The notes under the pieces are model-generated. The model did not search any database and was not told the origin of the DNA. It saw nothing but the letters and a program-made list of their open reading frames with translations. From a virus, in UHGV virus genome UHGV-1841366: a stretch of DNA of 54,360 bases, one strand, 5' to 3'. Shown piece after piece: positions 6,035-46,434 of this stretch. Position 1 is the first letter of the stretch, and every line of letters starts with the position of its first letter. The translations under genes were made by a program, and so were the position numbers.

Positions 6035-6039
6035 CAAAC

Positions 6040-6070: not shown

Positions 6071-6077
6071 TGCTCTC

Positions 6078-6216
6078 ATCACCTCAGGTCAAATTTCCTC
6101 GTTTGCAACCTCAGGTCAATTTAAGAATGATATCACCTGTATCCCTGAACTTACTTCTTTTCTGCCTGTTTCATTCAGCGATGATTATTACATCGAAAAC
6201 AAACGAGGAATTAAAA
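6078..6216 (+). promoter_or_regulatory. leader region duplicated upstream of 5315 (copy 2)
   Basis: Direct repeats ACCTCAGGTCAA at 6081-6092 and 6107-6118; block homologous to 5236-5314. Confidence 0.55.
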
Positions 6217-7143
6217 ATGAAACCAGTATTTTTGGGGCGAATTGATATTAGTGAATTGTTTTCAGTTAGAGATGGGTTCCAATATGACTGTGATTGCCTT
6301 GAACTTAATGGTCTTGAACGTGAATACAGATTGGCTATTGTGAATGATGGTAAGAAGACATTTTCTGTCGAATGTTTTGAAAATACTTACTTTAAGCAGG
6401 TGTTGAGAATAAGACAGCATGTGGAGATGTCAATTCGGGAAAACATCAAAAATAAATGTGAGTTTCTTGTGGTTAAAAATGAAGCAGATGAAATAAACTT
6501 TGTTACGTTCACTGATAGTGGTCGATTGGCTATGCTGGAGCTATTTCAGCTGATCGTTTCTAATAACAGTATAACAGAAGCCTTGAACAGTCTTTCAACT
6601 ATAGTATCAAGAGAAAGAGAAAACACTGGCGCTTTAATTGTAGAGGAGCTAGATGGAATACTCGAGAAGATCAAGAATAAAGAGCTGATTATAGAATATG
6701 GCAAGGAAAGTAGGAAAAATAATTTACATTCAGCTTTTCACTCCCCATATGTTGAGCGTTTGAATGGTTTGGCTGCTTTTGTTAATTTGGACTTTAATAG
6801 ATTTTTTAGTTCTTTTTTTACAGAGTGTGGGCTTGTTATTGTTGAGGTAAATAATGAGAACGATGTCCCCAAAATTATAGTACATTCGATGCCTGATATA
6901 TCTCTCAATGAAATTGGGGACAAACTGGAGAATTTATACGATGTAAAAAGCATGGAAGAACTCATAGAGTATCTGGCCATAAATGCGGTAGCCATGGCTG
7001 ATAATGATGTGTTTGGGGTTGGTGCACTGCATGAAGGTTTTCTTGACGCCCTTGAGCTTTACGGGACTGCTCGCTGGTTTCTGTCAGGATTAGTGGATGA
7101 TGCACCTTTACTCATCAATACAGATTATTTTTATTCCAGTTGA
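6217..7143 (+). CDS. hypothetical protein
   Basis: In-frame ATG (MKPVFLGRI) of ORF 6070..7143 preceded by GAGGAATTAAAA; the upstream part of the ORF lies in the duplicated leader. AT-rich. Confidence 0.5.
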   Translation: MKPVFLGRIDISELFSVRDGFQYDCDCLELNGLEREYRLAIVNDGKKTFSVECFENTYFKQVLRIRQHVEMSIRENIKNKCEFLVVKNEADEINFVTFTDSGRLAMLELFQLIVSNNSITEALNSLSTIVSRERENTGALIVEELDGILEKIKNKELIIEYGKESRKNNLHSAFHSPYVERLNGLAAFVNLDFNRFFSSFFTECGLVIVEVNNENDVPKIIVHSMPDISLNEIGDKLENLYDVKSMEELIEYLAINAVAMADNDVFGVGALHEGFLDALELYGTARWFLSGLVDDAPLLINTDYFYSS

Positions 7144-7346
7144 AAACAAGGCCACCACTGCTGGTGGCCTTAAATGACCATCCTGTCTCCCGCAGGCTAA
7201 AAACACCAACCTCTTACCTCCAGGCAACCGACAAACCCACCTGTTCCCGTCCGGCTACCGCAACTTTCCACTTTGACGCCTTATTCGTACAACCATAATT
7301 AACACCAACAAGAGAACAATTTGTTATTTAGAATAAGGAATCAATC

Positions 7347-7829
7347 ATGAATTTTATCGCTACTGTAAACGCACCCGCACATGGCAATATCGCTGTAACG
7401 TTCTCTGACACTGAAAAACGAGTACTTGGTGCATGGCGCGACAATGAGACGGTAGAACTGTCAGCACAAGAAAAATGCATTATTGCACGCGACATCATTG
7501 GCAATCGTCGTTACTCGCGGGTATTTGAGAAAGCGTATGTGGTAAATTCTGGGTTCGGAACGTTCGTCTTTCCGGTGCGCTCCGGGCGATTCTGCCAGTC
7601 CAAGCTGATTGAGTTCGCTACGCAGATTTCTGTCTGGATTAAAACTCAATCGTCGTTCAAATTTTCCGACGATGAAGCAGTATCGCAGGGGATGCGGATC
7701 GCCAACAATGCAATTAAATGCAAAAACATTACGTATACCGCTGGCGTTGACACATGGAGACTGTTTTGCGCTAACTTTATGCTGAATGTATACGCAAGCA
7801 ACCGCATCCACATCCTTGATGGCGTGTAA
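7347..7829 (+). CDS. hypothetical protein
   Basis: ORF track; AAGGAA ribosome-binding site; variant palindromic motif at 7314-7326 upstream; terminator downstream. Confidence 0.55.
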   Translation: MNFIATVNAPAHGNIAVTFSDTEKRVLGAWRDNETVELSAQEKCIIARDIIGNRRYSRVFEKAYVVNSGFGTFVFPVRSGRFCQSKLIEFATQISVWIKTQSSFKFSDDEAVSQGMRIANNAIKCKNITYTAGVDTWRLFCANFMLNVYASNRIHILDGV

Positions 7830-7838
7830 CTGAGAAGA

Positions 7839-7860
7839 GGGCCAGAAACGGCCCTTTCTC
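7839..7860 (+). terminator. rho-independent terminator
   Basis: GGGCC / GGCCC stem with AGAAAC loop followed by TTTCTCT. Confidence 0.6.
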
Positions 7861-7955
7861 TATAGCCACCAGCTGCCGCAGGGAAATTTTCAGAAACGGC
7901 TAGGAACGCATTCATGAGCCGACGGGAAACGGCCAGGATTTTTTCGGGAAACGGC
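7845..7955. repeat. cluster of four GAAACGGC repeats
   Basis: GAAACGGC at 7845, 7893, 7926 and 7948 (last two 22 bp apart), flanked by a 9-bp inverted repeat CCACCAGCT (7866-7874) / AGCTGGTGG (7989-7997). Confidence 0.5.
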
Positions 7956-8365
7956 TACATTTGCCTTTATGTAGAAAAAACATCGGGAAGCTGGTGGAAT
8001 CCAATCAGCGGTTGTCGGACAGGTGAGCGGGGAAAATCATTATGACTCTCGTCACCTGAGACATCCAGATTTCTTTCATAGCGTAATCACATACGTGATT
8101 AAGTGGTGTGATTATGTGAAAAATCACGCGCACATAATACGCGAGCGGATACGGAACAAAACAAAATGCAGATTCGCGCCGACAAATAAACGCGGATCAT
8201 AAAGCAAGACTAAAAGCCAATGATTAACTATGCGCTATAGCGCAATATAACGCATTTTAAGCGCGTTAATGTGTTAAGTAATGGGTATGTACTGGCAAGG
8301 ATATAAAAGCGCGTCCATGGCGTTATTTTGGCGCTTATTTTTATGTTGTTGGAGTGAGTTAAAGA

Positions 8366-8391
8366 CAATAAAAAAGCGCCATCATTGGCGC
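8366..8391 (-). terminator. rho-independent terminator (minus strand)
   Basis: GCGCCA / TGGCGC stem with 4-nt loop; on the minus strand it is followed by a T-run (complement of AAAAA at 8371-8375). Confidence 0.55.
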
Positions 8392-8414
8392 GTTATGGTG
8401 GGAGTATTGGAAAC

Positions 8415-8439
8415 GAAAAAAGCGCCCATAGTGGGCGCT
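8415..8439 (-). terminator. rho-independent terminator (minus strand, possibly bidirectional)
   Basis: AGCGCCCA / TGGGCGCT stem; T-run on the minus strand; just downstream of the stop of the minus-strand gene 8445..8675. Confidence 0.6.
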
Positions 8440-8444
8440 CGATT

Positions 8445-8675
8445 TTATTTATGTAAACTGATTTCAAATCCCATTTCTACAAACGCTTTTAACATTAAAA
8501 ATATATCAGCGTCGTTCACGTCTGCTTTTTTCCGCTCCTGGTCGCTCAATAAGTCAATTTTGCGCGTCGTTTCGTCTATAAGCTCGACTGCGCGCCCAGC
8601 GTAACCAGCGATCCCAGCGATGCGATTAACATAATATTCATTATGGACGTTAACGCCAGCGATTAAAATAATCAT
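8445..8675 (-). CDS. hypothetical protein
   Basis: ORF track; AAGGAG about 10 nt upstream of the ATG on the minus strand. Confidence 0.5.
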   Translation of the reverse strand: MIILIAGVNVHNEYYVNRIAGIAGYAGRAVELIDETTRKIDLLSDQERKKADVNDADIFLMLKAFVEMGFEISLHK

Positions 8676-8696
8676 GCTTTAAAAACTCCTTTAAAT

Positions 8697-8714
8697 GCGC
8701 CCATATTTGGGCGC
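8697..8714. repeat. 18-bp palindrome GCGCCCATATTTGGGCGC (copy 1)
   Basis: Identical 18-mer at 9451-9468; each lies just downstream of a minus-strand gene stop. Confidence 0.6.
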
Positions 8715-8729
8715 ATGATTTATATGGTA

Positions 8730-9377
8730 TTATTCAAAATATGGAAATGCAGAATTTTCTTCATGATCTAATACGAAAGTTTTTTCATTAATATAATTTG
8801 GCGCATTATCGCCAAATGATTCTAGTGGTTCGAGATGATTGAAATCATCTTTTTTAATAAAGTAGGATATATAATAGATACCATCGTGTAAATCAGCCAA
8901 ACCACACCAAATATAATAGCCAATAGGATAACATGCAGGACCACGATTCACATAAACTGTAATTTTTCCGCTTAATAAATCCATCTCAGCAAAAAAAGCT
9001 AATCCGCTTTTTTCCTCTTCTCCTTCTTTTTCTCTGATTTTTCCGTTTAGAACGTCAGCACTTTGAATAAACCACGCTCTAGTAAAATCCGCGTTAACAT
9101 ATGTAGCAAATTCGCCAAAGTCGCAATTTTTGCGCAAGTTGGGTAAATCCTCGATTAAATCGAGATTGATATTTAATTGCGCTGTATTTTCAGCAATAAT
9201 TAGCTCTGCTTTCGTTAATTCCGTGTTATTAAATTCTGGCTTTTTTTCTGGTAATTTGTGCACTACTTCTTTGATTTTGTCAGCGAATTTAATTTTTGAT
9301 TTAATCAATGGAAGACGAGATTCAGCCATCTCTACGAAAGCAGAGATAAAAGATTCGCAAACAGTAAAAGTTTTCAT
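8730..9377 (-). CDS. hypothetical acidic protein, paralog of 5315..6034
   Basis: 215 aa; shared sequence blocks with 5315..6034 (see there); AT-rich. Confidence 0.55.
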   Translation of the reverse strand: MKTFTVCESFISAFVEMAESRLPLIKSKIKFADKIKEVVHKLPEKKPEFNNTELTKAELIIAENTAQLNINLDLIEDLPNLRKNCDFGEFATYVNADFTRAWFIQSADVLNGKIREKEGEEEKSGLAFFAEMDLLSGKITVYVNRGPACYPIGYYIWCGLADLHDGIYYISYFIKKDDFNHLEPLESFGDNAPNYINEKTFVLDHEENSAFPYFE

Positions 9378-9450
9378 ATTAAATTCCTCAATTAAAATCT
9401 GAACCAGATGAATAAAGCTAATATTAGCTTTATTCCGAGTTTTATCTCAT

Positions 9451-9468
9451 GCGCCCATATTTGGGCGC
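9451..9468. repeat. 18-bp palindrome GCGCCCATATTTGGGCGC (copy 2)
   Basis: Identical to 8697-8714; a 24-bp perfect palindrome AATAAAGCTAATATTAGCTTTATT lies next to it at 9409-9432. Confidence 0.6.
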
Positions 9469-9481
9469 TTGATTCCATTAA

Positions 9482-10132
9482 TTACGCTTTAAAAGCATCA
9501 GCTAGATAATTGTAGAAATCTTTTTTAATGAAGCGATATTGTTGAGTACCAGCTTTGGCGCTTCCCATTCCTTTGACTTTCTCAACAAGTCCGAGACGTT
9601 CGCAAAGATTGATTAGCTGGTTAGCTTGAGTATAGCCAGCGTCTAAGCGTAAATCATTTGCTCGCTTAACTTCATTCATTAAATCAAAAACAGCGCCATT
9701 AGTAAAAACTTCTACTTCGTCTTTGATCATGTGAACAAGTGCAAACACGCGTGATCCGCTCATATCGTCTTTGGAGTACTCGCATTTACCAGCTTTGATA
9801 GATTTAACCAGATAAACTAATTTTTCCAGTGAGTAACTGTTAGTCATCGCTTCGCGGAAAAACACTTCTGGTGCTTGTTTGCTTGCTTTAATCGCAAAGT
9901 AAAACACAGCAGACAATTTTTCGTCGTTAACAGCAGACAAAATGTTATTAGAGAAATATTTTAACTTTGTAGAAGCAGCGCGAAGATTATCTTTATCGTT
10001 TTTGGTCAGCGCGCCAGTGCTATTAAGAAGTTCATTCTTTTGCCCCAAGTCGTTAGCTTTTGCACCCAGCTCAGCAGCAACAATATTAGCAGCTTCAACG
10101 ATGTTTTTTTTAGATAATATAATGTTGGTCAT
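9482..10132 (-). CDS. hypothetical protein
   Basis: ORF track, 216 aa; no confident domain. Confidence 0.5.
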   Translation of the reverse strand: MTNIILSKKNIVEAANIVAAELGAKANDLGQKNELLNSTGALTKNDKDNLRAASTKLKYFSNNILSAVNDEKLSAVFYFAIKASKQAPEVFFREAMTNSYSLEKLVYLVKSIKAGKCEYSKDDMSGSRVFALVHMIKDEVEVFTNGAVFDLMNEVKRANDLRLDAGYTQANQLINLCERLGLVEKVKGMGSAKAGTQQYRFIKKDFYNYLADAFKA

Positions 10133-10423
10133 GATTTCAATCCTTAGATCAAATTAGAAAATTTATTTCGTTCTATCGTTAGCGTGTTCGCTTTCGACGA
10201 GTTCAATTATCGATACGCAAAAAAAGATTGCAAGTGTTTTTTCTTAGTTTTTTACAGGGACGAAAGTCCTAGAAATAAAAGCGAGATCGTCGAAGGTGTT
10301 CCCTAAATAAATAATCTACTCCGGCTTTTAACCTTATATATTTATACGGAGTGGAATAGGGGGTATTAAATGAATGGCGTGTAAAATAATAACCGGACTT
10401 AGCCGGTTATTACCCTTATAGAT

Positions 10424-10987
10424 TTAAAATGGAAGGATTCGGTCAACCCAATCGAAGAGAACAATCATTCTTGCATGTTCCCTGATTTTCATCGTCACCT
10501 GACAAGCATCAACGCCTAACGACACTCCCTCTATTTCACGGCCATCCGCCATGTAGACCCTTATAGATCTGCCGTTTTGATGAGCTTTGCGACATATCTT
10601 AAAAAAGTCACGACGTGATGGCTGGTTGTTCACGTAGTCAGGATGTACGGTAAGCCTGTCCGCAAAGTCCCCATCTACTTCTGGAGGTATAATCGTTTCT
10701 ATAGAGCTAACTTTCCCAAGAGGAAGACGAACTCGACGCTCTTTGCTTCTTGGAACGGGTGATAGATCAAGTTTGTTGCGTGATGGTAGTGTTCCCTGTA
10801 CATACATGTTGAATACCTGTCCATCTTCCATCGTGACTTTTACAGGAACAGAGTGTGCCCTCCAGAACATCAAGGTATGTTCCACATTAGAATAGTCTCG
10901 CGGCCATACTTCAGCCGGTATGCCGTATGTAATATCTTTCGTCGTCATATCATTATAAAGTGGTTGGCAATATGTCCATTGTACCAT
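10424..10987 (-). CDS. hypothetical protein
   Basis: ORF track, 187 aa; overlaps the upstream lipoprotein gene by 35 nt, so the true start may be the internal ATG at 10948; no clear ribosome-binding site for either. Confidence 0.4.
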   Translation of the reverse strand: MVQWTYCQPLYNDMTTKDITYGIPAEVWPRDYSNVEHTLMFWRAHSVPVKVTMEDGQVFNMYVQGTLPSRNKLDLSPVPRSKERRVRLPLGKVSSIETIIPPEVDGDFADRLTVHPDYVNNQPSRRDFFKICRKAHQNGRSIRVYMADGREIEGVSLGVDACQVTMKIREHARMIVLFDWVDRILPF

Positions 10988-11372
10988 CCCAGGTAGTGAA
11001 AACCCGATATGTTTTCGAGTCGCCCTGCTTTAGCTTTATTTCTCGTTCCATCCTGGAGGGGTTAAATGCGCAAAGACCTGAACTTTCAATTGATGTCCCA
11101 ACGATCCACTCTCCTTCGTTAAGGTAGAAAGTTGCTTTTTCACCAGGTTCTAGCTTTGCAACCGTTTCTCCATTGATGAAAATGGAAGCGTTACATGCAG
11201 AACCAACCAGCCCTTTGTCTCGAACTATTGTTAAACTAGACTCATGTGGTGTTTGATATTTAAATATTCTGCTTTGAGGTGCATCCTTTGCCTTTGAAAC
11301 AGATATAGACGAAGACGAACATCCAATTAGTGATGTGGTTAGTGTTAGAATAATTAGGTTTGTTACTTTCAT
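10953..11372 (-). CDS. putative lipoprotein
   Basis: N-terminus MKVTNLIILTLTTSLIGCSSSS: hydrophobic signal plus lipobox-like LIGC. Confidence 0.55.
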   Translation of the reverse strand: MKVTNLIILTLTTSLIGCSSSSISVSKAKDAPQSRIFKYQTPHESSLTIVRDKGLVGSACNASIFINGETVAKLEPGEKATFYLNEGEWIVGTSIESSGLCAFNPSRMEREIKLKQGDSKTYRVFTTWDGTMDILPTTL

Positions 11373-11388
11373 ATTTGTCTGACTATGA

Positions 11389-11940
11389 TTAATAGTTAAC
11401 TTGGGTTCTGTTGTAAATGTCTATTAAGAAATCGTCCTGCTTTATGTTTTTACAGGTTTTGTCGAAGGTTAATTCACCTGATAATATGCAGGCGTTGTAT
11501 TTTTCGATAAAAATATTTAATGCCTGCCAATTTTTGAAAAGAAAAGAGAAACCATATGACGACTCGCTGCCGTTTATCAACCCTCGTGCGCTGGGATATT
11601 TGTATAAATTTGAATGTAGCTCTAATTTACCAGGGGCAACGTCGCCACAGGAATTCATAATGACGAACATTTTGGATATATCAAAAGGATAAAAAACTAT
11701 GCCGCAATTTGTCCTGTTGCCTTTAATATCCTTCACGTAAATATAGTGCTCGTAACAATCTTTACGCGAGGCATTTAACCTGTATTGTATTAGTTTGTGC
11801 TCTCCTTTTTGAGAGGGTATTAGGTATCGTGTACGCTTGTCTAAGCAGGATTTCGTCTTTGTACGGTATTGCGACATACTGCTCTTTATTTCCGCTGCAC
11901 TTAGAAAGTTCTCATTAAAAGGCAAATGTCCCATTTGCAC
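11389..11940 (-). CDS. hypothetical protein, homologous to the N-terminal domain of the HNH protein
   Basis: 183 aa; SYGFSFLFKNWQALNIFIEKYNACILSGELT aligns with GYSFAFKNRLSIEMFLITLIDYIDSGKIS of 12186..13166, and GIVFYPFDISK with GICVTPQKIEK. Confidence 0.5.
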   Translation of the reverse strand: MQMGHLPFNENFLSAAEIKSSMSQYRTKTKSCLDKRTRYLIPSQKGEHKLIQYRLNASRKDCYEHYIYVKDIKGNRTNCGIVFYPFDISKMFVIMNSCGDVAPGKLELHSNLYKYPSARGLINGSESSYGFSFLFKNWQALNIFIEKYNACILSGELTFDKTCKNIKQDDFLIDIYNRTQVNY

Positions 11941-11978
11941 CTCCGGTTCTTAAGCATAGATAAGCCTACAAAATTAAT

Positions 11979-12045
11979 TCAGTCGATCAAGATCTTTTTT
12001 CAGCCGGAAGTTTATGTATCAAGAAGTGTGATCAAGTTCACATAC
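11979..12045. repeat. intergenic repeat R2 containing TGTGA-N6-TCACA
   Basis: About 80 percent identical to 13217-13285; palindrome TGTGATCAAGTTCACA at 12027-12042. Confidence 0.55.
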
Positions 12046-12185
12046 TGCTTTGCCAGAAGAATACCATATGCAAAACATTCTATTGCTGTTAAAATTTAAT
12101 CGTTCAGACATAAGGAAGCCCTATACCCTCGACAAATCTTTCTGGTATTGTCGAGGGCATGTTTCACATTTATAGGTAGATAGCG

Positions 12186-13166
12186 TTAATTGGTGTTTTT
12201 GTTCTTCTCTTTTTTGCTAATTTCATCACATGTAAGGTTCATTATGTCTATGTTTTCTTGCTTTTGAAGGTTGCCGACAATTTTTTTGCGCAATTCATAA
12301 AATCGCTCGCGTGGTATAGCTTCCTTGTTGCCGTTGATGTGAAGTATTGCGTGACAGCTAGGGCAGACGGCAATCAGATCTGTTTTTGGGTTCACGCTTC
12401 GTGCATCTTCGCCTTGTGAAAGTGGGACGATGTGGTGAGCGTGTAGCAGCGTTTTCGTTTCTTTGCCGTCAATTTCCTTGCCGTATATTTCCGACATCGT
12501 TCTGCAACATAATTGACACCTGTAGTCTGCGTTTGCCAGAACGTCATTCCTTAACCCGGATACGCGGCTACGATGTTGCGACTGGATTAATCTTGTTTCG
12601 CCCTCTATATATTCCTCAACTTCTTCTTTCTGGAGGTCGTAGCTGATTTCTTCTTGAGTCGGATGGACTTTTTTGTATAGAAGATCAAGATATTTAATGT
12701 CCTCTGTTATATATTTGGAATCCTCTAGCGAGGATATTTTTCCTGAGTCTATGTAGTCAATTAATGTAATAAGGAACATCTCTATCGATAGCCTGTTTTT
12801 AAAGGCAAACGAATATCCAAGATGTCTTCTATCTCCTGAATGAATTGGCGTCCAATGAGATTTCTCAATTTTTTGTGGTGTTACGCAGATACCTTTGCCG
12901 ATATTGTTTACATGTTCCAATAATTGATAAACAGAATTAATGCGGTAAGCATGTGTTACTAAAGAATTTATTTTTCTTGTGCCGACGGAGGATTTTGTCA
13001 TAACAACATGATGAGATATTTGTTTTTTTAAAATCAAATCATACGATGTAGCTTTTTGGTTTTCGCCTTTGTCGGTTTTTTTTATTAAATTTAGTTTTTT
13101 ATTAGAGGCTATTTTCTCTATTTCTTCTCTAACTTCTTTTATCGTCATGTAAGTTTCTTTTGTCAT
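12186..13166 (-). CDS. HNH endonuclease with N-terminal domain of unknown function
   Basis: 326 aa; C-terminal HNH-type motif (CQLCC ... HAHHIVPLSQGEDARSVNPKTDLIAVCPSCHAILH); AT-rich. Confidence 0.6.
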   Translation of the reverse strand: MTKETYMTIKEVREEIEKIASNKKLNLIKKTDKGENQKATSYDLILKKQISHHVVMTKSSVGTRKINSLVTHAYRINSVYQLLEHVNNIGKGICVTPQKIEKSHWTPIHSGDRRHLGYSFAFKNRLSIEMFLITLIDYIDSGKISSLEDSKYITEDIKYLDLLYKKVHPTQEEISYDLQKEEVEEYIEGETRLIQSQHRSRVSGLRNDVLANADYRCQLCCRTMSEIYGKEIDGKETKTLLHAHHIVPLSQGEDARSVNPKTDLIAVCPSCHAILHINGNKEAIPRERFYELRKKIVGNLQKQENIDIMNLTCDEISKKEKNKNTN

Positions 13167-13216
13167 TATAATTCGACCTACTGGAATATCTTGATTTAAG
13201 AGGCTACAAATATCGT

Positions 13217-13285
13217 TCAGCCAATCAAGAAATTTTTTCAGCCGGAGGTTTGTACTTCAAAAAATGTGATGAATGTCACATGCAG
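13217..13285. repeat. intergenic repeat R1 containing TGTGA-N6-TCACA
   Basis: Palindrome TGTGATGAATGTCACA at 13265-13280; adjacent 10-bp perfect inverted repeat CATGCAGGTG/CACCTGCATG at 13279-13306. Confidence 0.55.
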
Positions 13286-13313
13286 GTGCGCTCATACACC
13301 TGCATGTAGACTA

Positions 13314-13913
13314 TTAATCATTCAATAATCTATATTTGCTTTTGATTAAATCTTCACCTTTTCTGGTGAACACAAAACCAAATTGCGATTTTTTGTTCAG
13401 TCGAAGAACTCTGTTATCCAGTGCATCGGTTGACGGAATTAGTGTCTGATCATCTATCCAATTTAGTAGCGTAAGAAAGTTCAGCAACCTCAACGTTGTT
13501 GTGCGAAGCTCTTTCGATATATTTTCAATGCTGGCAATTCGTCTTTCTTTTTTCTTTGGCGTTTCGATTAACTTCGCTTGAGAGGTGGACAATGAATAGA
13601 TATTTTCATTGTCCTCATCAAACAACAGATGTTGGGTAAGTTTGCTAAAAAAACCTCGTGCGGATTCGCTTGATAACACTCCCTCTTTATTCATATCATT
13701 AGTTATTCTGTACAAGAGTGGACCGTACTTCATTTCAGGATAACGTTGATAAAAGTTAAGTAATTCAAAAGCAGCATTAGCACCAACAAGAAAATCAGAA
13801 GGATCGCTGACCTTCCAGAAAGAATGATTTTTCTTAGCGCCTGTGGTGTCAACAAATGATAATTCTTTTAAACAACTCATGATGTACTCCTTTCTAACAA
13901 GTGAGCACATCAT
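13314..13913 (-). CDS. hypothetical protein
   Basis: ORF track, 199 aa (an internal ATG at 13881 is an alternative start); no confident domain. Confidence 0.45.
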   Translation of the reverse strand: MMCSLVRKEYIMSCLKELSFVDTTGAKKNHSFWKVSDPSDFLVGANAAFELLNFYQRYPEMKYGPLLYRITNDMNKEGVLSSESARGFFSKLTQHLLFDEDNENIYSLSTSQAKLIETPKKKERRIASIENISKELRTTTLRLLNFLTLLNWIDDQTLIPSTDALDNRVLRLNKKSQFGFVFTRKGEDLIKSKYRLLND

Positions 13914-13945
13914 AGAATTGGTGGATAGGGGGTAAATATGGAACG

Positions 13946-14224
13946 TTACGGCAACCTGCTCAGTATTTCCTCCAGATCTTCTTTGGTCATATTAGAGTTC
14001 TCATAAATACGCATAATTTTCTCACGAGTCTTAGCAGAGACTCCAACGGCAGATGAAACTTTGTCAAATTCAGCCATTGTCATTGTCTCCAGAATGGCAT
14101 TGATAACTTCAGCCTTAGACATTTTGATATTTTTTTCTTTTAGTTTCACTTGAAACTTTCCAAGTTTGTCATTGGCCTTATCCGACAATGACACCTGACA
14201 ATAAGTTGTTTTCTTTTCGCTCAT
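13946..14224 (-). CDS. hypothetical small protein
   Basis: ORF track, 92 aa; stop-start tightly coupled to the helicase gene (2-nt gap). Confidence 0.45.
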   Translation of the reverse strand: MSEKKTTYCQVSLSDKANDKLGKFQVKLKEKNIKMSKAEVINAILETMTMAEFDKVSSAVGVSAKTREKIMRIYENSNMTKEDLEEILSRLP

Positions 14225-14226
14225 AA

Positions 14227-15786
14227 CTAATCTCGTTTCAGAACTCCAAAATCGAATGTGCCATCAATTGGCAATACACCTTCTGCAAAGCCAGGTGTGG
14301 TGTCGATGATGTGTTTTCGCTCATAAGAGTGAGACAACAGGTATTTGTTGCTAATGTCAATGAAATCAGTGATAAAACACACGTTTGCCTGATTTTTTTT
14401 TGCTCGTAAGCCACGACCGACACGCTGTCTCATTTCAACTTCTGCTTTCCCACCACCAGCAAGAATGACCGCGCCCACGCTTGGCACATCAACACCGACA
14501 TCCAGAATAGTCGAGCCTATTAAAACATCTATTTCGCCAGACGCTAAACTGTTCAGCTTTGCTTGCCTTGTCGTCTGGTTCGATTCCCCATAGATGAAGT
14601 CAACTCTAAGGCCGGACTCTTTCATCATCTCCATCAGGATTTGCCCGTGGCGTTTAAGACGAACCAGAGTCATGCAGTTGAGAGAATGTTGCTTATAGAG
14701 CAATGCTTCTCGTACTATGGCCTCGTTTCGTCCCAAATTATACACGATCCCCAACTGATAAGCTTTTTGGTAGGCAGTGCTCATACCTACCCTAAAATTG
14801 AGGTGTTTGTTGGCAAGTTCTGCCTTGATTCTGACCTCGTCTGGTTTGTAGGCAACTTTATGATAAAGGAAATATGGCTTTGCCAGAATACCTCTATCAA
14901 TCAGGTATTTTTCTGTAACTTTAATTTCAATTCGCCCGGCCACAGCCATCAGACGCATGTTGGCTTCTGTAGAAGCCTTCATGAACGGCGTTGCCGTAAG
15001 CGCCAGGCGATAGTCTGCGTTCGTACATAATCTGGCAATGTCATAGAAATTAGAGCCTGAAGACTCATGCGCCTCTTCCAGAATAAGAAGAGAGACACTT
15101 GAAAGGAAGCGCTTCACTAACTCCTGACGTTTGAGGTGGTAGCTCTTCTTATCTGGTGTTGCATCGCGTGGTGGTTCTTCGAGGAAACTTGCAATAGTTT
15201 GAACTGTAGCGACGTTGATATGTCGTGATACCTGAAACTCACCCGAGCCAATGATTCCAACCTTTTGGTCTTTTAACCACGGTTCGCCATTTTTGGCGCG
15301 GTAGTCGATGGATCTCTGGAAGTTTTCGGCCATCTGAAACATCAGAACAGATCGGGTTGTTAAAAATAATGTCATTCGACCGATACGTGCAGCTGCTTTG
15401 CAGGCAACGTTAGATTTCCCACCACCAGTAGCGATCTGCGCAATCATCATTCCCTCGCGAACCAGTGTTTCCACAGTCTGATCCTGATACGCATAATCAG
15501 GATTGTATGGGAATGGGTTAACCGCCGGATTTGGCTTTCCAAGCGCCGGGGCTTTGTCTTTGCGGATATGAACACATTTGATGCCCGCCTTGTTCAAGTT
15601 CGCCGCTACAGGCTTGGCAAAGCCAGCAGGGAACGAGTTTTTACTCCAGTGGAACATCGTGCTTGTGCCCTTCCAGTCGCCAGTGTCGACTTCGTAGCTC
15701 AACATCTGTTGCACCAGTTGCTTTACCTTGTCATCTGCGCCAGAAATAAGCGCATTTACTGCGTTAGATACAATCCGAACAGTCAT
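14227..15786 (-). CDS. SF2 DEAD/DEAH-type helicase
   Basis: 519 aa; Walker A ATGGGKS, motif II LEEAH, motif III LTATP, motif VI QRVGRGLR. Confidence 0.65.
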   Translation of the reverse strand: MTVRIVSNAVNALISGADDKVKQLVQQMLSYEVDTGDWKGTSTMFHWSKNSFPAGFAKPVAANLNKAGIKCVHIRKDKAPALGKPNPAVNPFPYNPDYAYQDQTVETLVREGMMIAQIATGGGKSNVACKAAARIGRMTLFLTTRSVLMFQMAENFQRSIDYRAKNGEPWLKDQKVGIIGSGEFQVSRHINVATVQTIASFLEEPPRDATPDKKSYHLKRQELVKRFLSSVSLLILEEAHESSGSNFYDIARLCTNADYRLALTATPFMKASTEANMRLMAVAGRIEIKVTEKYLIDRGILAKPYFLYHKVAYKPDEVRIKAELANKHLNFRVGMSTAYQKAYQLGIVYNLGRNEAIVREALLYKQHSLNCMTLVRLKRHGQILMEMMKESGLRVDFIYGESNQTTRQAKLNSLASGEIDVLIGSTILDVGVDVPSVGAVILAGGGKAEVEMRQRVGRGLRAKKNQANVCFITDFIDISNKYLLSHSYERKHIIDTTPGFAEGVLPIDGTFDFGVLKRD

Positions 15787-15868
15787 AAACCTCTTTCCTT
15801 AGTGCCTTTTGTATGTTATTTGGCTATTATAATAAGTAAGCAATTACTTAGTGGATTGTAGCAATAAA

Positions 15869-16549
15869 ATGGATGTAAAAATTACGATTTTGCAGGTTGA
15901 TGTTGCCAACCTTCGCCCGAATACCTGGAACACCAATTCGGTTGGTGCGCAGAATTTTGAAAAACTGAAAGGTTCTATCGAAAAATTAGGCTTTTTTAAA
16001 CCAATTTTGGCTCGTGAAATTGAAGATGGATTTTTTGAAATCCTCGGTGGCGAACATCGCTGGCGTGCCGCTATTGAGCAAGGAATTTCAACGGTTCCAG
16101 TGCTTTCTGTGGGCAAAATTAGCGATGTCGTAGCTAAACAGATGTCACTGGTGGACAACGAGCGATATGGTGAAGACGACCAAATCGCATTGCAACGCTT
16201 CATTGAAGAAATTCAGTCAGAACTTGACTATCAACTGTCTGAAATCGCCCCGTATGACGACGAAATCTCGATGGTTTTAGCAAAAGAGGCGGCAATCGAC
16301 CTTGAAGCACTGGAGGCGTTGTCTCGTGGTAGTGATGAGCCTGTCGATACCGACAAACGAGAGAAAACCGAACGTGTGGGGGCGGAACATCAGACCATGC
16401 GCTTCAAAGTAACTTTCGATGCGTCAGATCGTGTTGCAGAAACCATAAAAAACATCATCAAAGAGCAGGCTATTAACACCGGTAATGAAATGGAGAACGC
16501 TGGTGAGGCTCTGGTGTGGCTGGTCGACTACTACAAGGAGCGTATGTAA
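15869..16549 (+). CDS. ParB/Srx-like nuclease-domain protein 1
   Basis: GGEHRWRAA resembles the ParB GxxRxxA box; start taken at the first in-frame ATG (15851 is GTG); neither start has a strong ribosome-binding site. Confidence 0.55.
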   Translation: MDVKITILQVDVANLRPNTWNTNSVGAQNFEKLKGSIEKLGFFKPILAREIEDGFFEILGGEHRWRAAIEQGISTVPVLSVGKISDVVAKQMSLVDNERYGEDDQIALQRFIEEIQSELDYQLSEIAPYDDEISMVLAKEAAIDLEALEALSRGSDEPVDTDKREKTERVGAEHQTMRFKVTFDASDRVAETIKNIIKEQAINTGNEMENAGEALVWLVDYYKERM

Positions 16550-40788: not shown

Positions 40789-43323
40789 ATGTGGTACAGG
40801 GAAGGTACTATCACATTTACACAGGGTAGCAATACTCTGGTTGGGGCAGGGACAGCCTGGAACGTAACCGCTAATGGTGTGTTGCCGGGTATGATCGTCG
40901 TTGGCCCCGATAATAAACTGTATGAGATCAAGCGCGTAACCAGTGACACGAATATTGTTCTCTCAGAACCTTATACCGGTGAAACTCAGTCTGAAGTTCC
41001 GTGCCGAATCATTACGACCTATGAGGGCGACTTAACGCAGTTTAGCGCACGCTTTACTGCACTAATGTCGCGTATGTCGGCTGATTCCAAGTCCATGCGT
41101 AGTTGGCTGACTGCCGTGGATGAAATCACAATTGAACGTGAAGATGGTACGGAATTAACCATAAAATCCCTTACTCAGATCGTTAATGAGCACAACAAAA
41201 ACGTAGAGTGGTATAAAAATAACACTGATGAAATTGATTCCGCTGGCACCTATGCGCGTGAGGCCGCGAGTAGCGCGACAACTGCTGCGCAAAACGCTGA
41301 GCGCGTTGAACAGATCGCGCAAAATATTGCTAACAGTATAAGTACGGCCCAGCAGGCTGCCACAGATGCTGCAAATAGTGCCGGTGCCGCGAAAACGTCA
41401 GAAACGAATGCGGCAGCGTCACAACAATCAGCAGCCACTTCTGCATCCACCGCGACCACGAAAGCGTCAGAAGCAGCCTCCTTAGCCAGGGATGCGTCGG
41501 CTTCAAAAGAGGCGGCAAAATCATCAGAAGCGAACGCGAAAGCGTCGGAAACCAGTGCCGAATCCTCAAAAACGGCAGCCGCATCGTCAGCCAGTTCGGC
41601 AGCGTCATCGGCATCGTCTGCGTCGGCTTCAAAAGATGAAGCGACTAAACAGGCGTCAGCCGCAAAAGATAGTGCTATGACTGCATCCTCGAAAGCAACA
41701 GAGGCGACAGGCAGTGCAACGGCTGCCTCTCAGAGCAAAACTGCTGCTGAATCCGCTGCGACCCGTGCGGAAGCTGCTGCTGCTCGTGCTGAAGAGATTG
41801 CCGGTGCAGTTGCGATGGAAGACGCAAGCCTTACAACTAAAGGTGTTGTGAAACTTAGCAGTGCGACCAACAGCACTTCAGAGTCACTGGCTGCAACCCC
41901 AAAAGCGGTAAAAGCTGCATATGACCTGGCTGACGGGAAATACACTGCGCAGGATGCAACGACAACCCAGAAAGGGATAATCCAGCTAAGTAGCGCCATC
42001 AATGACGAATCTGAAACGCTTGCTGCAACGCCAAAAGCGGTAAAAGTCGCCTATGACAATGCCGAAAACCGCCTGCAGAAAGATCAGAATGGCGCTGATA
42101 TCCCTGACAAGAACGCATTCAGGGAAAGTCTTGGGCTGGGGGATGCCGCCACCAAAAATATCGGTACTACAGCCGGCACCGTAGCGGCAGGAAACGACTC
42201 CAGACTGGTTAACGCACTGCAAAAATCCACTTCAGCCCTGGCCGTGGACCTGAATACACTGGGGAGTCTGGAAGTCCAGGGAACTTATTATCAGCCAGCG
42301 GATAAAGGGGCAACAGCTGCGCATCATTACCCGGTGCTCCGGTCCGGGACATTGCAGGTTCTGCCTGGTGTCTGGGGAGGCTGCCAACAGGAATATACGA
42401 GCTGGAATCCACCGAGAAAATTTGTGAGAACACTGACAGGCTATTTCAAAGGTAATGGCCCGTGGTCGCCGTGGGTGGAGGTGGCGTTTACCGACAGTAC
42501 AGTGGCTGTTGCGACCGCAGCGACAAAATTGCAGACGACCAGAAGAGTTGGTGGTGTGGATTTTGACGGGACATCAGATATCAGCCTCCCCGGAGTGGAT
42601 GCGCCAGGCGATCAGGATACGACAGGTAATGCGGCTACTGCGACCAAATTGCAGACGCCAGTGAATATTAACGGTACAGCGTTTGATGGTAGCCACGATA
42701 TCACGATCCGGGATGAAGGTGCATTTCAGAAGCCTGCGCTCTTTATACATTCCTCTGTAGATTTGAACACGCTAGGTGGTCCAGGTAGCGAAGGTTTTTA
42801 TTTTCAGAAATACGGGAGTGTGGCGACAGTTGATCATCATTACCCAACCAACAGACCAGGCACGCTGACTGTACTGCGTGGTGGATTTGACGGATGCCAG
42901 CAGGAATATTTTAGTGTTAATCCTCCAAGGAAATTTTTCAGGGCATTAACAGGAGCCTGGAACGGACAGGATGGCCCATGGTCAGACTGGTTTGAGATTC
43001 AGACTCTGGGAGGTGGAAGTGGAGGTACGCAGGTTTTTGGAACCGAATATCAAAATAAATCATCAGAACGCGGTCCGGGTGTTACATACACTAATAGTCG
43101 ATCGTATCCGATTATGGTGATCATTGATGGATACTACGGAGGTGGTGACGGTTTTCATCTTTTTATAAACGATGAAATATTGATATCCCCATCTACATCT
43201 TCAGGACAAAATGACGACCAATTTCAGTTTACTTTCATCGTTCCGGCAGGCGCAACGTACATGATCTTTGAAAAAACTTTCGGTACGAATTTCCGTATTC
43301 ACACCTGGTTGGAGTTTTGTTAA
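40789..43323 (+). CDS. side tail fibre protein
   Basis: 844 aa; phage tail-fibre repeat pattern (KGIIQLSSAINDESETLAATPKAVKVAYD, twice), long Ala/Ser-rich low-complexity region, internally duplicated C-terminal blocks. Confidence 0.7.
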   Translation: MWYREGTITFTQGSNTLVGAGTAWNVTANGVLPGMIVVGPDNKLYEIKRVTSDTNIVLSEPYTGETQSEVPCRIITTYEGDLTQFSARFTALMSRMSADSKSMRSWLTAVDEITIEREDGTELTIKSLTQIVNEHNKNVEWYKNNTDEIDSAGTYAREAASSATTAAQNAERVEQIAQNIANSISTAQQAATDAANSAGAAKTSETNAAASQQSAATSASTATTKASEAASLARDASASKEAAKSSEANAKASETSAESSKTAAASSASSAASSASSASASKDEATKQASAAKDSAMTASSKATEATGSATAASQSKTAAESAATRAEAAAARAEEIAGAVAMEDASLTTKGVVKLSSATNSTSESLAATPKAVKAAYDLADGKYTAQDATTTQKGIIQLSSAINDESETLAATPKAVKVAYDNAENRLQKDQNGADIPDKNAFRESLGLGDAATKNIGTTAGTVAAGNDSRLVNALQKSTSALAVDLNTLGSLEVQGTYYQPADKGATAAHHYPVLRSGTLQVLPGVWGGCQQEYTSWNPPRKFVRTLTGYFKGNGPWSPWVEVAFTDSTVAVATAATKLQTTRRVGGVDFDGTSDISLPGVDAPGDQDTTGNAATATKLQTPVNINGTAFDGSHDITIRDEGAFQKPALFIHSSVDLNTLGGPGSEGFYFQKYGSVATVDHHYPTNRPGTLTVLRGGFDGCQQEYFSVNPPRKFFRALTGAWNGQDGPWSDWFEIQTLGGGSGGTQVFGTEYQNKSSERGPGVTYTNSRSYPIMVIIDGYYGGGDGFHLFINDEILISPSTSSGQNDDQFQFTFIVPAGATYMIFEKTFGTNFRIHTWLEFC

Positions 43324-43325
43324 GA

Positions 43326-43691
43326 ATGAAATATTTTGTCGATGCGAAAGGTACTATTTATGCCTACGAGTCTGACGGTTCGCAGGATGAGTTCATTAAA
43401 GAGGGACTGACGCCAGTAACGGAAGCGGAGGTGAAAGAACGCCTGAAACCATCAGCAGAATGCTGGCAACGACGAGCGGAGAGCAAGAGAGAGTCGTTGA
43501 TATCTGAAGCTGGTCGCAATTTGTCCGTCAATCAGGTTCGATTGCTTTCGGGGCGTGTGTTATCAGAACGTGAGAGTCAGTCGCTGAATGCCTGGCTGGA
43601 TTACGTAGACGCACTGGAGGCGATGACGTTTGCTGCTGTTGTTGATGAGGAAAGCTATCTCAGCATCAAGTGGCCGGAAAAACCCGCGTGA
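43326..43691 (+). CDS. tail fibre assembly protein (putative)
   Basis: About 121 aa immediately after the fibre gene; ATG at 43326 (ORF track starts at TTG 43317). Confidence 0.5.
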   Translation: MKYFVDAKGTIYAYESDGSQDEFIKEGLTPVTEAEVKERLKPSAECWQRRAESKRESLISEAGRNLSVNQVRLLSGRVLSERESQSLNAWLDYVDALEAMTFAAVVDEESYLSIKWPEKPA

Positions 43692-43997
43692 TAAAAAGGC
43701 CCGCACACAAGGTGCGGGCAAATGATCGCGTAATATACTCAACAATTAGCTCTGTAATTATACAGATTCTTAATAGCGACAGAACTATTTAATGCGCTCG
43801 GATTCGTTTTTAGTTGAAGTAATATTAAACACCCTGAAATATCGTATAAGTTACTCGAAGGGGTTCATTAGAATCCATTCAATGCTTTCTCGGCAGTGCT
43901 TTGAAACGATAATGGATAAGTAAGCACATACCTACAATGAAAGTGTGATATGTGATATAAATCCGCCATCCCGATTTGACTTTTCATGGAGGAAAAC

Positions 43998-44321
43998 ATG
44001 TCGAACGAGATGGCGGGCGTTACAACAGATCAAGTTGAGCGTATTGCCGCAATCGTTGCTCGGGAGGTTGTTGGCAAATTGGGTAAAGAGCTACGTGAAG
44101 AAATTGGCCAGGAGGTCAACGATCAGCTGAAAACCTACTTTGGTGATATGACCCCGGCGCAACATAGTATTCAACACTCCAACCTGGACAAACTCCTTAA
44201 CCGGTTAGATTCCATCTCAAGTGGGTTCTTTGGCGGCATTGTTTCTAAAATAACGTCGTTCATTATTACCGCACTGCTTTTGGGGTTAGCCGCGTATGGC
44301 GTAAAAAACGGGCTGCAATAA
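43998..44321 (+). CDS. putative lysis-cassette membrane protein (holin candidate)
   Basis: ATG after GGAGG; single C-terminal hydrophobic helix (ITSFIITALLLGLAAYGV); first gene of the block ending in spanins. Topology is atypical for holins. Confidence 0.3.
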   Translation: MSNEMAGVTTDQVERIAAIVAREVVGKLGKELREEIGQEVNDQLKTYFGDMTPAQHSIQHSNLDKLLNRLDSISSGFFGGIVSKITSFIITALLLGLAAYGVKNGLQ

Positions 44322-44334
44322 CAGGAGATCAAGG

Positions 44335-45027
44335 ATGAAAACTCCGAGAGGCATTCGTAATAATAACCCCGGTAATCTTGATAAAGGATCACCGTGGCAA
44401 GGTCTGGTTGCGAATCCAGACGAACCGCGCTTTTGCACGTTTAAAGACCCTGTTTGGGGGATTCGTGCGCTGGCGGTGACTCTAATTACCTACCACGATA
44501 AACGTCGCGCAAAAGACGGCTCAAGTATCGATACCATTCGTGAAGTTATTGAACGCTGGGCACCGCCGAATGAAAACAATACTGACGCCTACATTAATGA
44601 GGTGTCTAAAGCCGTTGGTGTAACCGCAGACATGATCATCGATCTGCATGATTACGACATCCTTCGACCTTTGGTTGAGGCAATCATTCGCCACGAGAAT
44701 GGTCGAGGTCCACTCAAAACGCTGAACACCTGGTATGCGGCAGAAGTTATTGAGGAAGGTCTGCGTCGAGCTGGCGTCGTTAAGCCGGTGAAAACCGTGA
44801 AGGCTGTTCCTGTAACTAAAGAAACCGCAGGCGCAACTGTTACAGCAGGTATTGGTCTGGCGCAGCTGGCCGATGTTATGCCGCAGGTTTCCGCTGCTAT
44901 GGATAAGGCACAAGGTCATATCTCTAGCGGGGATACAGTACGCATCATCTTCGGTATTGCCACTATTGTTGTGGCAGGATTCATTGCCTGGTCGCAGGTA
45001 AGAAAACATCAGAAAGGGATGGTCTAA
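44335..45027 (+). CDS. putative endolysin-position protein with C-terminal membrane anchor
   Basis: 230 aa between holin candidate and spanins; C-terminal hydrophobic helix; I could not assign a hydrolase family. Confidence 0.3.
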   Translation: MKTPRGIRNNNPGNLDKGSPWQGLVANPDEPRFCTFKDPVWGIRALAVTLITYHDKRRAKDGSSIDTIREVIERWAPPNENNTDAYINEVSKAVGVTADMIIDLHDYDILRPLVEAIIRHENGRGPLKTLNTWYAAEVIEEGLRRAGVVKPVKTVKAVPVTKETAGATVTAGIGLAQLADVMPQVSAAMDKAQGHISSGDTVRIIFGIATIVVAGFIAWSQVRKHQKGMV

Positions 45028-45028
45028 T

Positions 45029-45280
45029 ATGCTAGGCAGCCTGATGACAAAGCTAAAAGTTGCTTTGATTACGCTGGCTGCCGTTCTTTTCGTTCTGGTC
45101 GGCGCTTACACGATGGGCGGAAATGCGGCGCGACGAGCAATGGAAGAGAAGGCAAAACAGGAAGACAGAAAACGACTTCAAAACACAGTGGAAGTGGTAA
45201 ATGAGACGAGCAATAAAATACGTCAGAAAGATGCTTCTGCCATTCATCGTGAGTTGTATGATAAGTGGGTGCGTCATTAA
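45029..45280 (+). CDS. i-spanin (Rz-like)
   Basis: 83 aa with N-terminal transmembrane helix followed by a charged helical region; o-spanin ORF embedded in another frame. Confidence 0.55.
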   Translation: MLGSLMTKLKVALITLAAVLFVLVGAYTMGGNAARRAMEEKAKQEDRKRLQNTVEVVNETSNKIRQKDASAIHRELYDKWVRH

Positions 45281-45416
45281 ACCACAAACCGCCAGCGTAT
45301 TGTTCTGCGATGGAGCTGAGCCTATCTATATCAGCAATAATGATGTAATGACCGAAGAAACCGAACGCCAAATCCTTTTTCACAATACGATGGGAGAGAG
45401 AGTTTGCGGTTGGTGA
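45201..45416 (+). CDS. o-spanin (Rz1-like lipoprotein)
   Basis: Overlaps the i-spanin in a different frame; signal-like segment with lipobox-like ISGC; true start may be the internal ATG at 45231. Confidence 0.5.
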   Translation: MRRAIKYVRKMLLPFIVSCMISGCVIKPQTASVLFCDGAEPIYISNNDVMTEETERQILFHNTMGERVCGW

Positions 45417-45424
45417 TACGAAGT

Positions 45425-45442
45425 TCCCCTCATTTGAGGGGA
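45425..45442. terminator. hairpin between convergent genes
   Basis: TCCCCTCA / TGAGGGGA stem between the + strand spanins and the minus-strand toxin gene. Confidence 0.45.
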
Positions 45443-45447
45443 GTACA

Positions 45448-45969
45448 TTATTCTTCGAACAATTTTTCGATAGATTTTGTTGGATAGAACAAAGATCGCT
45501 CGTTGTTTCCAATCAACTGGATAAAGCCCAGGCTTTTATAAAACGCCTTAGCCTTATCATTCAACGCCTCAACGAAGAGTCCATGAATACCAACAGCAAG
45601 AGAGGCGTTATACACAACACGCATAGCGTGTGTTACAAGCATTGAGCCAAACCCTTGACTTTGAAGAGGTTTGTCCAAAGCCAGTCTGCCCAAAGTAACA
45701 CTTGGCACATTCCGATAAGGCACCTTCTTTTGCTGGCTTCTTGAAGGTAAGGACTCCTTTTCAAAGCAGCTGCCTGACAAAGTGTAATACCCTAACACTT
45801 TGGGTCTGTCTTCTTTAGTGCAAAGCACATAAGCGCGAAGAATTTTTCCCTCATGCTGTCTTTTTAAGTGGTTGATTAAAAAGGAGTTTAGAGATTCTTC
45901 ACCGCAATCAAAGCCATTCAAATCATAATCTTTCTCTCCAGAGAAAATTTCTATCTTTATATTATCCAC
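45448..45969 (-). CDS. ataT: GNAT-family toxin of a type II toxin-antitoxin pair (AtaT/TacT/KacT-like)
   Basis: 173 aa; near-collinear match to the AtaT sequence as I recall it (DYDL..FDCGEE, VLGYYTL.GSCFE, IPSVTLGRLA, GIHGLFVEALN, FYKSLGF); 7-nt gap to the upstream antitoxin. Confidence 0.7.
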   Translation of the reverse strand: MDNIKIEIFSGEKDYDLNGFDCGEESLNSFLINHLKRQHEGKILRAYVLCTKEDRPKVLGYYTLSGSCFEKESLPSRSQQKKVPYRNVPSVTLGRLALDKPLQSQGFGSMLVTHAMRVVYNASLAVGIHGLFVEALNDKAKAFYKSLGFIQLIGNNERSLFYPTKSIEKLFEE

Positions 45970-45976
45970 GAGTAAA

Positions 45977-46246
45977 CTATTCCATGCTTTTCAGACGATC
46001 AGCAGCTCGTTTCAGCTTGTCGTTCGGTGCCGGAGGATTGCTTATAGCGTCCATAACCAGATTCCAGGATTCCTCATTCAGAACCAGTCTACGGTGTTGC
46101 TCTATAACTTTCACGGCACGTTCAGATGCACTGCTAACCATAAACTGAGTAATGCTCTGGTTAGACATTGCGGCAGCTTCCTCGATGATGCTTTTATCGT
46201 CATCGGTTAATCTCAAATCGATGCGCTGCTTTTTTAGTGCTGACAT
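45977..46246 (-). CDS. ataR: DUF1778-type antitoxin (AtaR/TacA-like)
   Basis: ATG at 46246 preceded by AGGAGG (ORF track begins upstream at 46285); MSALKKQRIDLRLTDDDKS...NEESW closely resembles AtaR as recalled. Confidence 0.7.
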   Translation of the reverse strand: MSALKKQRIDLRLTDDDKSIIEEAAAMSNQSITQFMVSSASERAVKVIEQHRRLVLNEESWNLVMDAISNPPAPNDKLKRAADRLKSME

Positions 46247-46434
46247 GTATTCCTCCTGATGGCCGTGATGTAGGAAGGCCATCAATCTCCTCTGTTCAAA
46301 CTGAGGTTTCGACTCAAAAATTACTTTAAAAGGCTATAGCCCATTACGTGTGCATTATCAAATTGTGTACGGCATATCACCGTACTTGTAATATAGAGGT
46401 CATTGTTACTTTTTTCAACAGACAAATACAAGCT

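Follow-up and report, generated by a model that had tools for sequence, protein, structure and literature searches.

A lysis operon with a putative self-anchored endolysin of the Enc34/M4Lys type in an SSU5-like phage-plasmid

The viral genome UHGV-1841366, a stretch of 54,360 nucleotides that we call the window, carries four plus-strand open reading frames (ORFs) arranged head to tail at positions 43998-45416, each where a preliminary description had placed it. That description had taken the block for a lysis cassette, and matches to PHROG families, the annotations of Escherichia phage Cyrano and Salmonella phage SSU5 and the confirmed spanins agree with it. We read the block as the lysis operon of an SSU5-like phage-plasmid, in which a self-anchored endolysin acts with a 107-residue timing factor or co-holin and with overlapped spanins, and we put the probability of this reading as a whole at roughly 0.7. 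A helical, lysozyme-like domain with Glu121 in its active site would cleave the glycan strands of peptidoglycan. By homology with M4Lys and Enc34 ORF39, the endolysin would insert into the inner membrane and reach the wall by means of its own C-terminal module, and would do without both an N-terminal signal and a canonical hole-forming holin. The 107-residue protein would be tail-anchored, with an acidic helical domain of about 80 residues in the cytoplasm, and would most likely determine when lysis occurs, or make its onset sharper, by working on the endolysin module as a regulator or co-holin and not by exporting a soluble enzyme. The overlapped i-spanin/o-spanin pair would then disrupt the outer membrane.

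The endolysin and its membrane module

In a phmmer search, residues 3-151 of the 230-residue protein matched the Hafnia phage Enc34 endolysin in its catalytic domain (PDB 7q47) with E=2.6e-54 and 59% identity. Over its full length, membrane module included, the protein was 56% identical to gp38 of phage Chi and 47% identical to an Aeromonas Casjensviridae homologue. No catalytic motif had been assignable in the preliminary description, because no Pfam or NCBIfam model covers the Enc34/M4Lys family; searches of both collections with all four proteins of the block gave nothing above noise. Homology with the Enc34 enzyme now supplies the assignment: E121, Y86 and W75 align to its Glu131, Tyr95 and Trp79 and are invariant in 33 homologues aligned at 56-90% identity. 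An AlphaFold2 (AF2) model built on these homologues had pLDDT values above 90 over residues ~40-150 and matched 7q47 with a TM score of 0.82 and a probability of 1.0. The fold in this model is all-helical and resembles the alpha-lobe of lysozyme. By sequence homology, the protein is an Enc34/M4Lys-type endolysin laid out as catalytic domain, linker and C-terminal membrane module.

What is known of its relatives indicates how such an enzyme may work. The Enc34 endolysin belongs to family PHA02564, which lacks sequence similarity to other lysin classes and has an all-helical, alpha-lobe-like fold; Glu131 was named as its catalytic residue, and Tyr95 and Trp79 match aromatic residues that are important in related GH73 and GH23 enzymes (PMC8943055). 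With roles taken from that paper, Trp75 and Tyr86 of the window enzyme are putative substrate-positioning residues. The Enc34 endolysin was muralytic on sacculi of E. coli, Pseudomonas and Hafnia, and was toxic only as the full-length protein (PMC8943055). M4Lys, from phage BSPM4, shares 97-99% identity with Chi gp38; at full length it lyses E. coli on its own and azide does not block this lysis, while deletion of the transmembrane domain, or of only the last 13 residues, abolishes it (PMC7143992). The soluble domain of M4Lys has N-acetylglucosaminidase activity, and the upstream "lysis protein B" of BSPM4 was neither toxic nor required (PMC7143992). The genome note on phage Siskin proposed such proteins as a new endolysin class (PMC6498227). 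By analogy with these homologues, the window protein would be a peptidoglycan glycosidase that inserts into the membrane and lyses the cell from within in an anchor-dependent manner.

Transmembrane calls throughout were made with simple Kyte-Doolittle (KD) hydropathy windows. As the preliminary description had claimed, the endolysin has a C-terminal anchor, a strong helix at residues 204-222 (KD 2.07; mean of 2.2 across the 33 homologues). A weak helix lies ahead of it at residues 164-182 (KD 1.11), where the homologues average 1.25 and contain 53% Gly, Ala, Ser or Thr; its composition is like that of a signal-arrest-release (SAR) domain, and it may or may not span the membrane. No signal is present at the N-terminus, whose first 30 residues are hydrophilic (KD -1.6 to -0.8). 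A C-terminal transmembrane module combined with a signal-less N-terminus supports the earlier suggestion of a non-canonical system or membrane-tethered hydrolase.

Among the 33 homologues, positive charges average 2.5 in the C-terminal tail and 0.76 in the loop ahead of the strong helix, and by the positive-inside rule this distribution predicts a cytoplasmic C-terminus. The motif VPVTKET and residues G174, Q177, A188, S198 and Q221 show no or almost no variation, and, at the level of the alignment, conservation of the module exceeds the needs of a plain anchor. For proteins of this type two topologies have been predicted, a hairpin with both termini inside for the Siskin-type endolysin (PMC6498227) and a single span with the N-terminus outside for M4Lys (PMC7143992). 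The hairpin would leave the enzyme in the cytoplasm, whereas the single span would need an export route for an N-terminal domain of ~195 residues.

The catalytic domain, with ~2000 homologues, is not confined to anchored endolysins. Without an anchor it is the endolysin of Nonagvirus and BcepGomr, and it forms the N-terminal domain of T7-like and other virion proteins. It is found in T7-like internal core proteins (PDB 9vvp, Gp29, E=5.6e-22), in tape-measure and head proteins (phrog_2276, phrog_992, phrog_7182) and under "virion protein" annotations, and phrog_873, the family matched by the window protein, is itself filed under "head and packaging". The 230-residue protein might therefore be a virion-associated peptidoglycan hydrolase used for infection, with the true endolysin encoded elsewhere. 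We regard this as very improbable, as the gene sits between the holin-position gene and the spanins and the protein has the membrane module of the endolysin subgroup, along with its 56% identity to Chi gp38/M4Lys, which lyses from within. The complete genome of Cyrano contains no other annotated lysin or holin, and no other small ORF with at least two strong helices came up in a KD scan of the window, where the other matches were single-helix proteins outside the cassette. Thus, although the domain also occurs in virion proteins, the window protein is the sole lysin candidate here, and no canonical holin-endolysin pair was found elsewhere in the Cyrano annotation or among the small ORFs of the window.

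The 107-residue protein and the cassettes that it heads

The gene of the 107-residue protein ends 13 nucleotides 5' of the endolysin gene. The single C-terminal transmembrane helix noted for its product in the preliminary description was recovered as a strong helix at about residues 81-99 (window maximum 2.02), followed by a tail of 8 residues with one Lys; the family means are 9.6 residues and 1.3 positive charges. The N-terminal domain of ~80 residues has a net charge of -4. An AF2 model (pLDDT 87) consists of helices at residues 10-48 and 53-103 with a break at the conserved FGDMT, and the second of these modelled helices runs into the single transmembrane helix. A fold search of BFVD with this model gave no match. 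The first residues, MSNEM, would allow a dual start at M1 and M5, but relatives do not conserve the second Met, and we did not take the motif as evidence for a holin/antiholin pair.

The protein at the same position in Chi-type cassettes has an N-terminal transmembrane helix, and the 107-residue family is unrelated to it (Chi gp37; BLAST, and an hhalign probability of 0.4%). Judged by sequence comparison, the endolysin and spanins are common with Chi-like phages, and a non-homologous gene has taken the first place in the cassette. Close relatives of the 107-residue protein were found only in SSU5-like elements. An exhaustive profile search extended the family to 62 representative clusters, mostly of 100-140 residues and of one architecture, with invariant G49, H56 and H60 within YFGDMTxxQHxIQHxRxDxLL (G-x6-H-x3-H), and a distant member led back to SSU5 by reciprocal tblastn (E=2e-8). 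Among 50,697 GenBank phage records the family occurs in only 12 SSU5-like entries; its remaining members are metagenomic. Pfam searches with 34 members returned scattered single weak matches only. Locus searches gave one marginal match among genome contigs and, from metagenomes, almost nothing but SSU5-like contigs.

We compared 13 distinct cassettes, several of which are related (Table 1). A member of the family was the first gene of the lysis cassette in all of them, usually right after tail-fibre genes. All nine cassettes with an anchor-less endolysin contained an extra small protein of 46+ to 107 residues with one to three hydrophobic helices; the three-helix protein of L111 matches the holin family phrog_8226 (E=4e-10). 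No such protein accompanied the Enc34-type endolysins with a C-terminal anchor. Of the others, L107 encodes a 72-residue two-helix protein with no recognised endolysin, and L106 is too short to judge. In SE1 and BcepGomr, which have the Enc34-type catalytic domain without the anchor, separate PHROG-supported holins adjoin the endolysin.

Table 1. Lysis cassettes headed by the 107-residue family, grouped by type of endolysin
Endolysin	Cassettes	Extra small hydrophobic protein
Enc34-type with C-terminal anchor	window/SSU5-like, L008, L110	none
Peptidase_M15_3	L108/109, L092, L112, L114, L116	yes; 72-96 residues, right after the endolysin (L112: 46+ residues, contig end; L114: homologous 84-residue protein, helices below the KD threshold)
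SLT-like, ~206 residues (phrog_669)	L091, L111, L115	yes; 93-107 residues, three helices
SAR-lysozyme-like (SAR-GH24-like)	L113	yes; 62 residues

As an extra holin-like protein is present in the nine anchor-less cassettes and absent from the Enc34-type ones, the endolysin module may stand in for the holin. The pattern suggests that the module does the holin's job and that the upstream protein is a timing factor; a tail-anchored family at the head of such diverse cassettes is a candidate for a new lysis regulator. A stronger form of this proposal, that the endolysin is a natural endolysin-holin fusion and the 107-residue family a new and widespread class of lysis-timing factors, pairing with whichever membrane permeabiliser is present, is one we put forward only tentatively and with the odds against it.

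Alternatively, the 107-residue protein could be a true holin of a new topological class, whose holes or depolarisation release or activate the tethered endolysin in a pinholin/SAR-like manner. It is small, is encoded by the first gene of the cassette and has one strong helix; its family always heads lysis cassettes; and it is labelled holin in SSU5, Cyrano and pJN2-26. The authors of the Enc34 study speculated on a pinholin-type partner (PMC8943055), and co-expression of LysAP and HolAP of phage AP1 enhanced lysis (PMC8879335). However, the protein showed no homology to any described holin family in Pfam, NCBIfam or PHROG, and its short tail with a single Lys lacks the charged hydrophilic C-terminal domain typical of holins. 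The family also co-occurs with other holin-like proteins in the nine cassettes, and a Chi-type endolysin lyses cells without its upstream partner (PMC7143992). The holin label itself is one of position only. On balance we consider a true holin unlikely and favour the timing factor or co-holin.

Several points weigh against the self-anchored endolysin with an auxiliary timing factor. Holin-independent lysis by M4Lys was observed only under strong over-expression. The results for ORF_37 of the Chi type cannot be transferred to the 107-residue protein, because the two are not homologous by the hhalign comparison above. The C-terminal modules of the window, Chi and BUCT551 endolysins match only their own endolysin PHROG and no holin, so that sequence evidence for derivation of the module from a stand-alone holin is lacking. 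Finally, the co-occurrence pattern comes from ~13 cassettes, several of them related, and from simple hydropathy calls.

Two further observations were made on these cassettes. After the Peptidase_M15_3 endolysins of L108 (3791-4066), L092 (3773-3991) and L114 (3339-3593) there is a conserved protein of 72-91 residues with two hydrophobic helices and the motifs ARPY(V/L)T... and AVGP(T/I)NAxI(I/V)GFWFGE; its best match was phrog_6637, of "unknown function" (E=1e-4), and it is likely an unannotated holin family. Distant members of the 107-residue family lie on contigs of 108-174 kb (L091, L094 and L115). On L091 a radical-SAM gene lies upstream, and a holin with three transmembrane domains occurs with the SLT-like endolysin. 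These contigs may represent other large phage or phage-plasmid lineages.

Spanins, genomic setting and neighbouring genes

The last two genes encode a spanin pair (Table 2). The i-spanin has an N-terminal helix at residues 11-29 (KD 2.38) and a short periplasmic domain that ends in KWVR; it is similar to its counterpart in BUCT551 (E=4e-7) and weakly to that of Chi (E=0.025), and a terminal KW(V/M)R motif is common to them. The o-spanin has the lipobox M-I-S-G-C24 and shows 51% identity to Chi gp40 (E=6e-16). An embedded o-spanin gene had been described; the pair itself is upheld, but its arrangement is a different one. The o-spanin gene lies in the +1 frame, starts 80 nucleotides before the i-spanin stop and passes it by 136 nucleotides, which makes this an overlapped pair like those of P2, Chi and Enc34. 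The embedded type of lambda Rz/Rz1 is ruled out, as 45201-45416 does not lie within 45029-45280.

In an earlier survey the SSU5 o-spanin was placed in the Chi o-spanin family and its i-spanin seems to be listed among the singletons (Kongari 2018, PMC6139136). The window i-spanin is very short, with 83 residues, of which ~54 are periplasmic, and no Cys; the mature o-spanin has ~48 residues and two extra Cys. In the Cyrano record, the "Rz1 spanin" CYRAN_25 (4390-4509) is a 39-residue ORF that begins with Val and has neither signal peptide nor lipobox. It is probably mis-annotated, the real start lying upstream inside the Rz gene, as at 45201 or 45231 in the window.

Table 2. Features of the lysis operon and its surroundings in the window
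Feature	Position	Strand	Evidence or remark
Tail fibre gene (844 residues)	40789-43323		5' neighbour
Tail-fibre assembly gene	43317-43691		5' neighbour; Caudo_TAP E=5e-10
107-residue holin-position protein, putatively tail-anchored in the membrane	43998-44321	+	phrog_5093, "unknown function", E=2.8e-68
230-residue Enc34/M4Lys-type endolysin	44335-45027	+	phrog_873 endolysin E=3.4e-88; PDB 7q47 E=2.6e-54
Endolysin catalytic domain, residues 1-150, PHA02564 family	44335-44784	+	alignment to 7q47; Glu121 codon 44695-44697
Endolysin weak helix, residues 164-182	44824-44880	+	KD 1.11
Endolysin strong transmembrane helix, residues 204-222, followed by tail RKHQKGMV	44944-45000	+	KD 2.07
i-spanin, 83 residues	45029-45280	+	phrog_1026 Rz-like spanin E=2.7e-24; N-terminal helix
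o-spanin lipoprotein, 71 residues	45201-45416	+	phrog_1275 E=1.2e-24; lipobox Cys codon 45270-45272
Terminator-like hairpin	45423-45444	+	directly after o-spanin stop; consensus scan
Antisense ORFs within the block	44521-45009, 45069-45512	-	no family match
GNAT toxin and antitoxin	45448-46285	-	3' neighbours; toxin KacT/TacT-like, phrog_1758 E=1e-50

The DNA of the block was 97% identical to Cyrano, 92-93% identical to PhiR41_1 and CMS-2020a and 82% identical to SSU5, and the block was found in 403 plasmid records from Escherichia, Enterobacter, Salmonella, Citrobacter and others, mostly non-mobilizable and of ~110 kb. From the identity to Cyrano and SSU5 together with the plasmid records, we infer that the window belongs to an SSU5-like phage-plasmid. 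Such elements are common in clinical and animal Enterobacteriaceae. The records of Cyrano and SSU5 label the four genes holin, endolysin, Rz and Rz1, so that these genes are already annotated; the small upstream protein is the uncharacterised part. In the plasmid records the PGAP pipeline calls all four "hypothetical protein", which fits the absence of Pfam and NCBIfam models for them; placement with Enc34 and M4Lys gives a usable annotation for genes so labelled by the NCBI pipeline.

The same "hypothetical" labels might be taken to mean that the ORFs are chance frames or decayed remnants of a defective plasmid-borne prophage. This is scarcely credible. Compared with Cyrano, the frames are intact, with no frameshift and no early stop; their products match those of the isolated phages Cyrano and PhiR41_1 at 99-100% identity; and the block is conserved across the 403 plasmids. 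The strong PHROG matches and the 97% nucleotide identity to annotated Cyrano genes identify the four ORFs as real genes of a lysis operon.

The start of the first gene at 43998 is favoured over an in-frame ATG at 43986, which would give 111 instead of 107 residues, because a GGAGG at 43988-43992 stands 5 nucleotides ahead of the ATG at 43998. A promoter scan found no sigma-70-like promoter upstream of the cassette. The hairpin after the o-spanin gene probably marks the end of the lysis operon; the number of hits in the terminator scan was not above shuffle expectation.

The operon is placed between tail-fibre genes and a toxin-antitoxin/partition block on the opposite strand, in which a GNAT acetyltransferase toxin with its antitoxin comes directly 3' of the lysis operon, followed by ParA. 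SSU5 has two unrelated hypothetical genes at the position of the toxin-antitoxin pair, which is therefore a variable accessory slot. Just 5' of the cassette (40789-43909) the window has a mosaic boundary. Only from ~43884-43950 onwards does it resemble Cyrano, SSU5 and the plasmids, and its tail fibre and tail-fibre assembly genes are unlike those of Cyrano. In SSU5 the interval between fibre and holin genes contains an adhesin, an outer-membrane protein, a membrane-associated protein and a Cor exclusion gene. Elsewhere, positions 1-16000 of the window have a G+C content of 0.37-0.45, against 0.46-0.49 in the structural and lysis part, and the AT skew shifts.

Comparison with known lysis systems

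Outside lysis cassettes, the nearest comparison is with virion lysins. Core protein Gp29 of phage E1004 and T7-like internal virion proteins have an N-terminal catalytic domain homologous to that of the window endolysin; in them this domain heads ejection proteins of more than 1000 residues, and no C-terminal membrane module follows.

SAR endolysins and their pinholins (P1 Lyz; R21 and S21-68 of phage 21) likewise involve a membrane-tethered muralytic enzyme with a weak, Gly/Ala-rich helix and lysis that is partly independent of a large-hole holin. The SAR domain is N-terminal and Sec-exported. This route is not possible for the window endolysin, because its N-terminus is hydrophilic and its hydrophobic segments are C-terminal, and with no N-terminal SAR domain it is not a SAR endolysin.

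LysAP of Acidovorax phage AP1 resembles the window endolysin in its described features: LysAP needs a C-terminal transmembrane domain to reach the membrane and to lyse cells when expressed alone, and a basic cluster follows this domain (PMC8879335). Its partner HolAP arrests growth (PMC8879335).

The closest systems are those of Enc34 and the Chi-like phages. Enc34 ORF39 and M4Lys/Chi gp38 belong to the same catalytic family as the window endolysin and share its length and its module of weak helix, strong helix and basic tail. Their cassettes have the same order of holin-position gene, endolysin, i-spanin and o-spanin, and the spanins are homologous. Like the Chi o-spanin family (PMC6139136), the window pair combines an i-spanin with an N-terminal helix and a lipoprotein o-spanin encoded in an overlapped +1 frame; the window i-spanin differs in being very short and highly diverged. 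The window enzyme is only 56% identical to that of Chi, and it comes from a temperate phage-plasmid of ~110 kb, whereas Chi-like phages are flagellotropic siphoviruses of ~60 kb. The upstream partner is unrelated to those of Chi and Siskin and mirrors their architecture, with its helix at the C-terminus where theirs is at the N-terminus. Enc34 ORF39 and M4Lys are known from experiments, whereas the SSU5-type proteins are known here from genes and models. The membrane-anchored type of endolysin has thus been described before, for Siskin in 2019 (PMC6498227), for M4Lys in 2020 (PMC7143992) and with the Enc34 structure in 2022 (PMC8943055). Its presence in the window extends C-terminally anchored endolysins beyond the Chi-like phages, and with the SSU5-type cassette a second, independent partner protein becomes available, in a group that includes PhiR41_1, which infects E. 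coli K-12.

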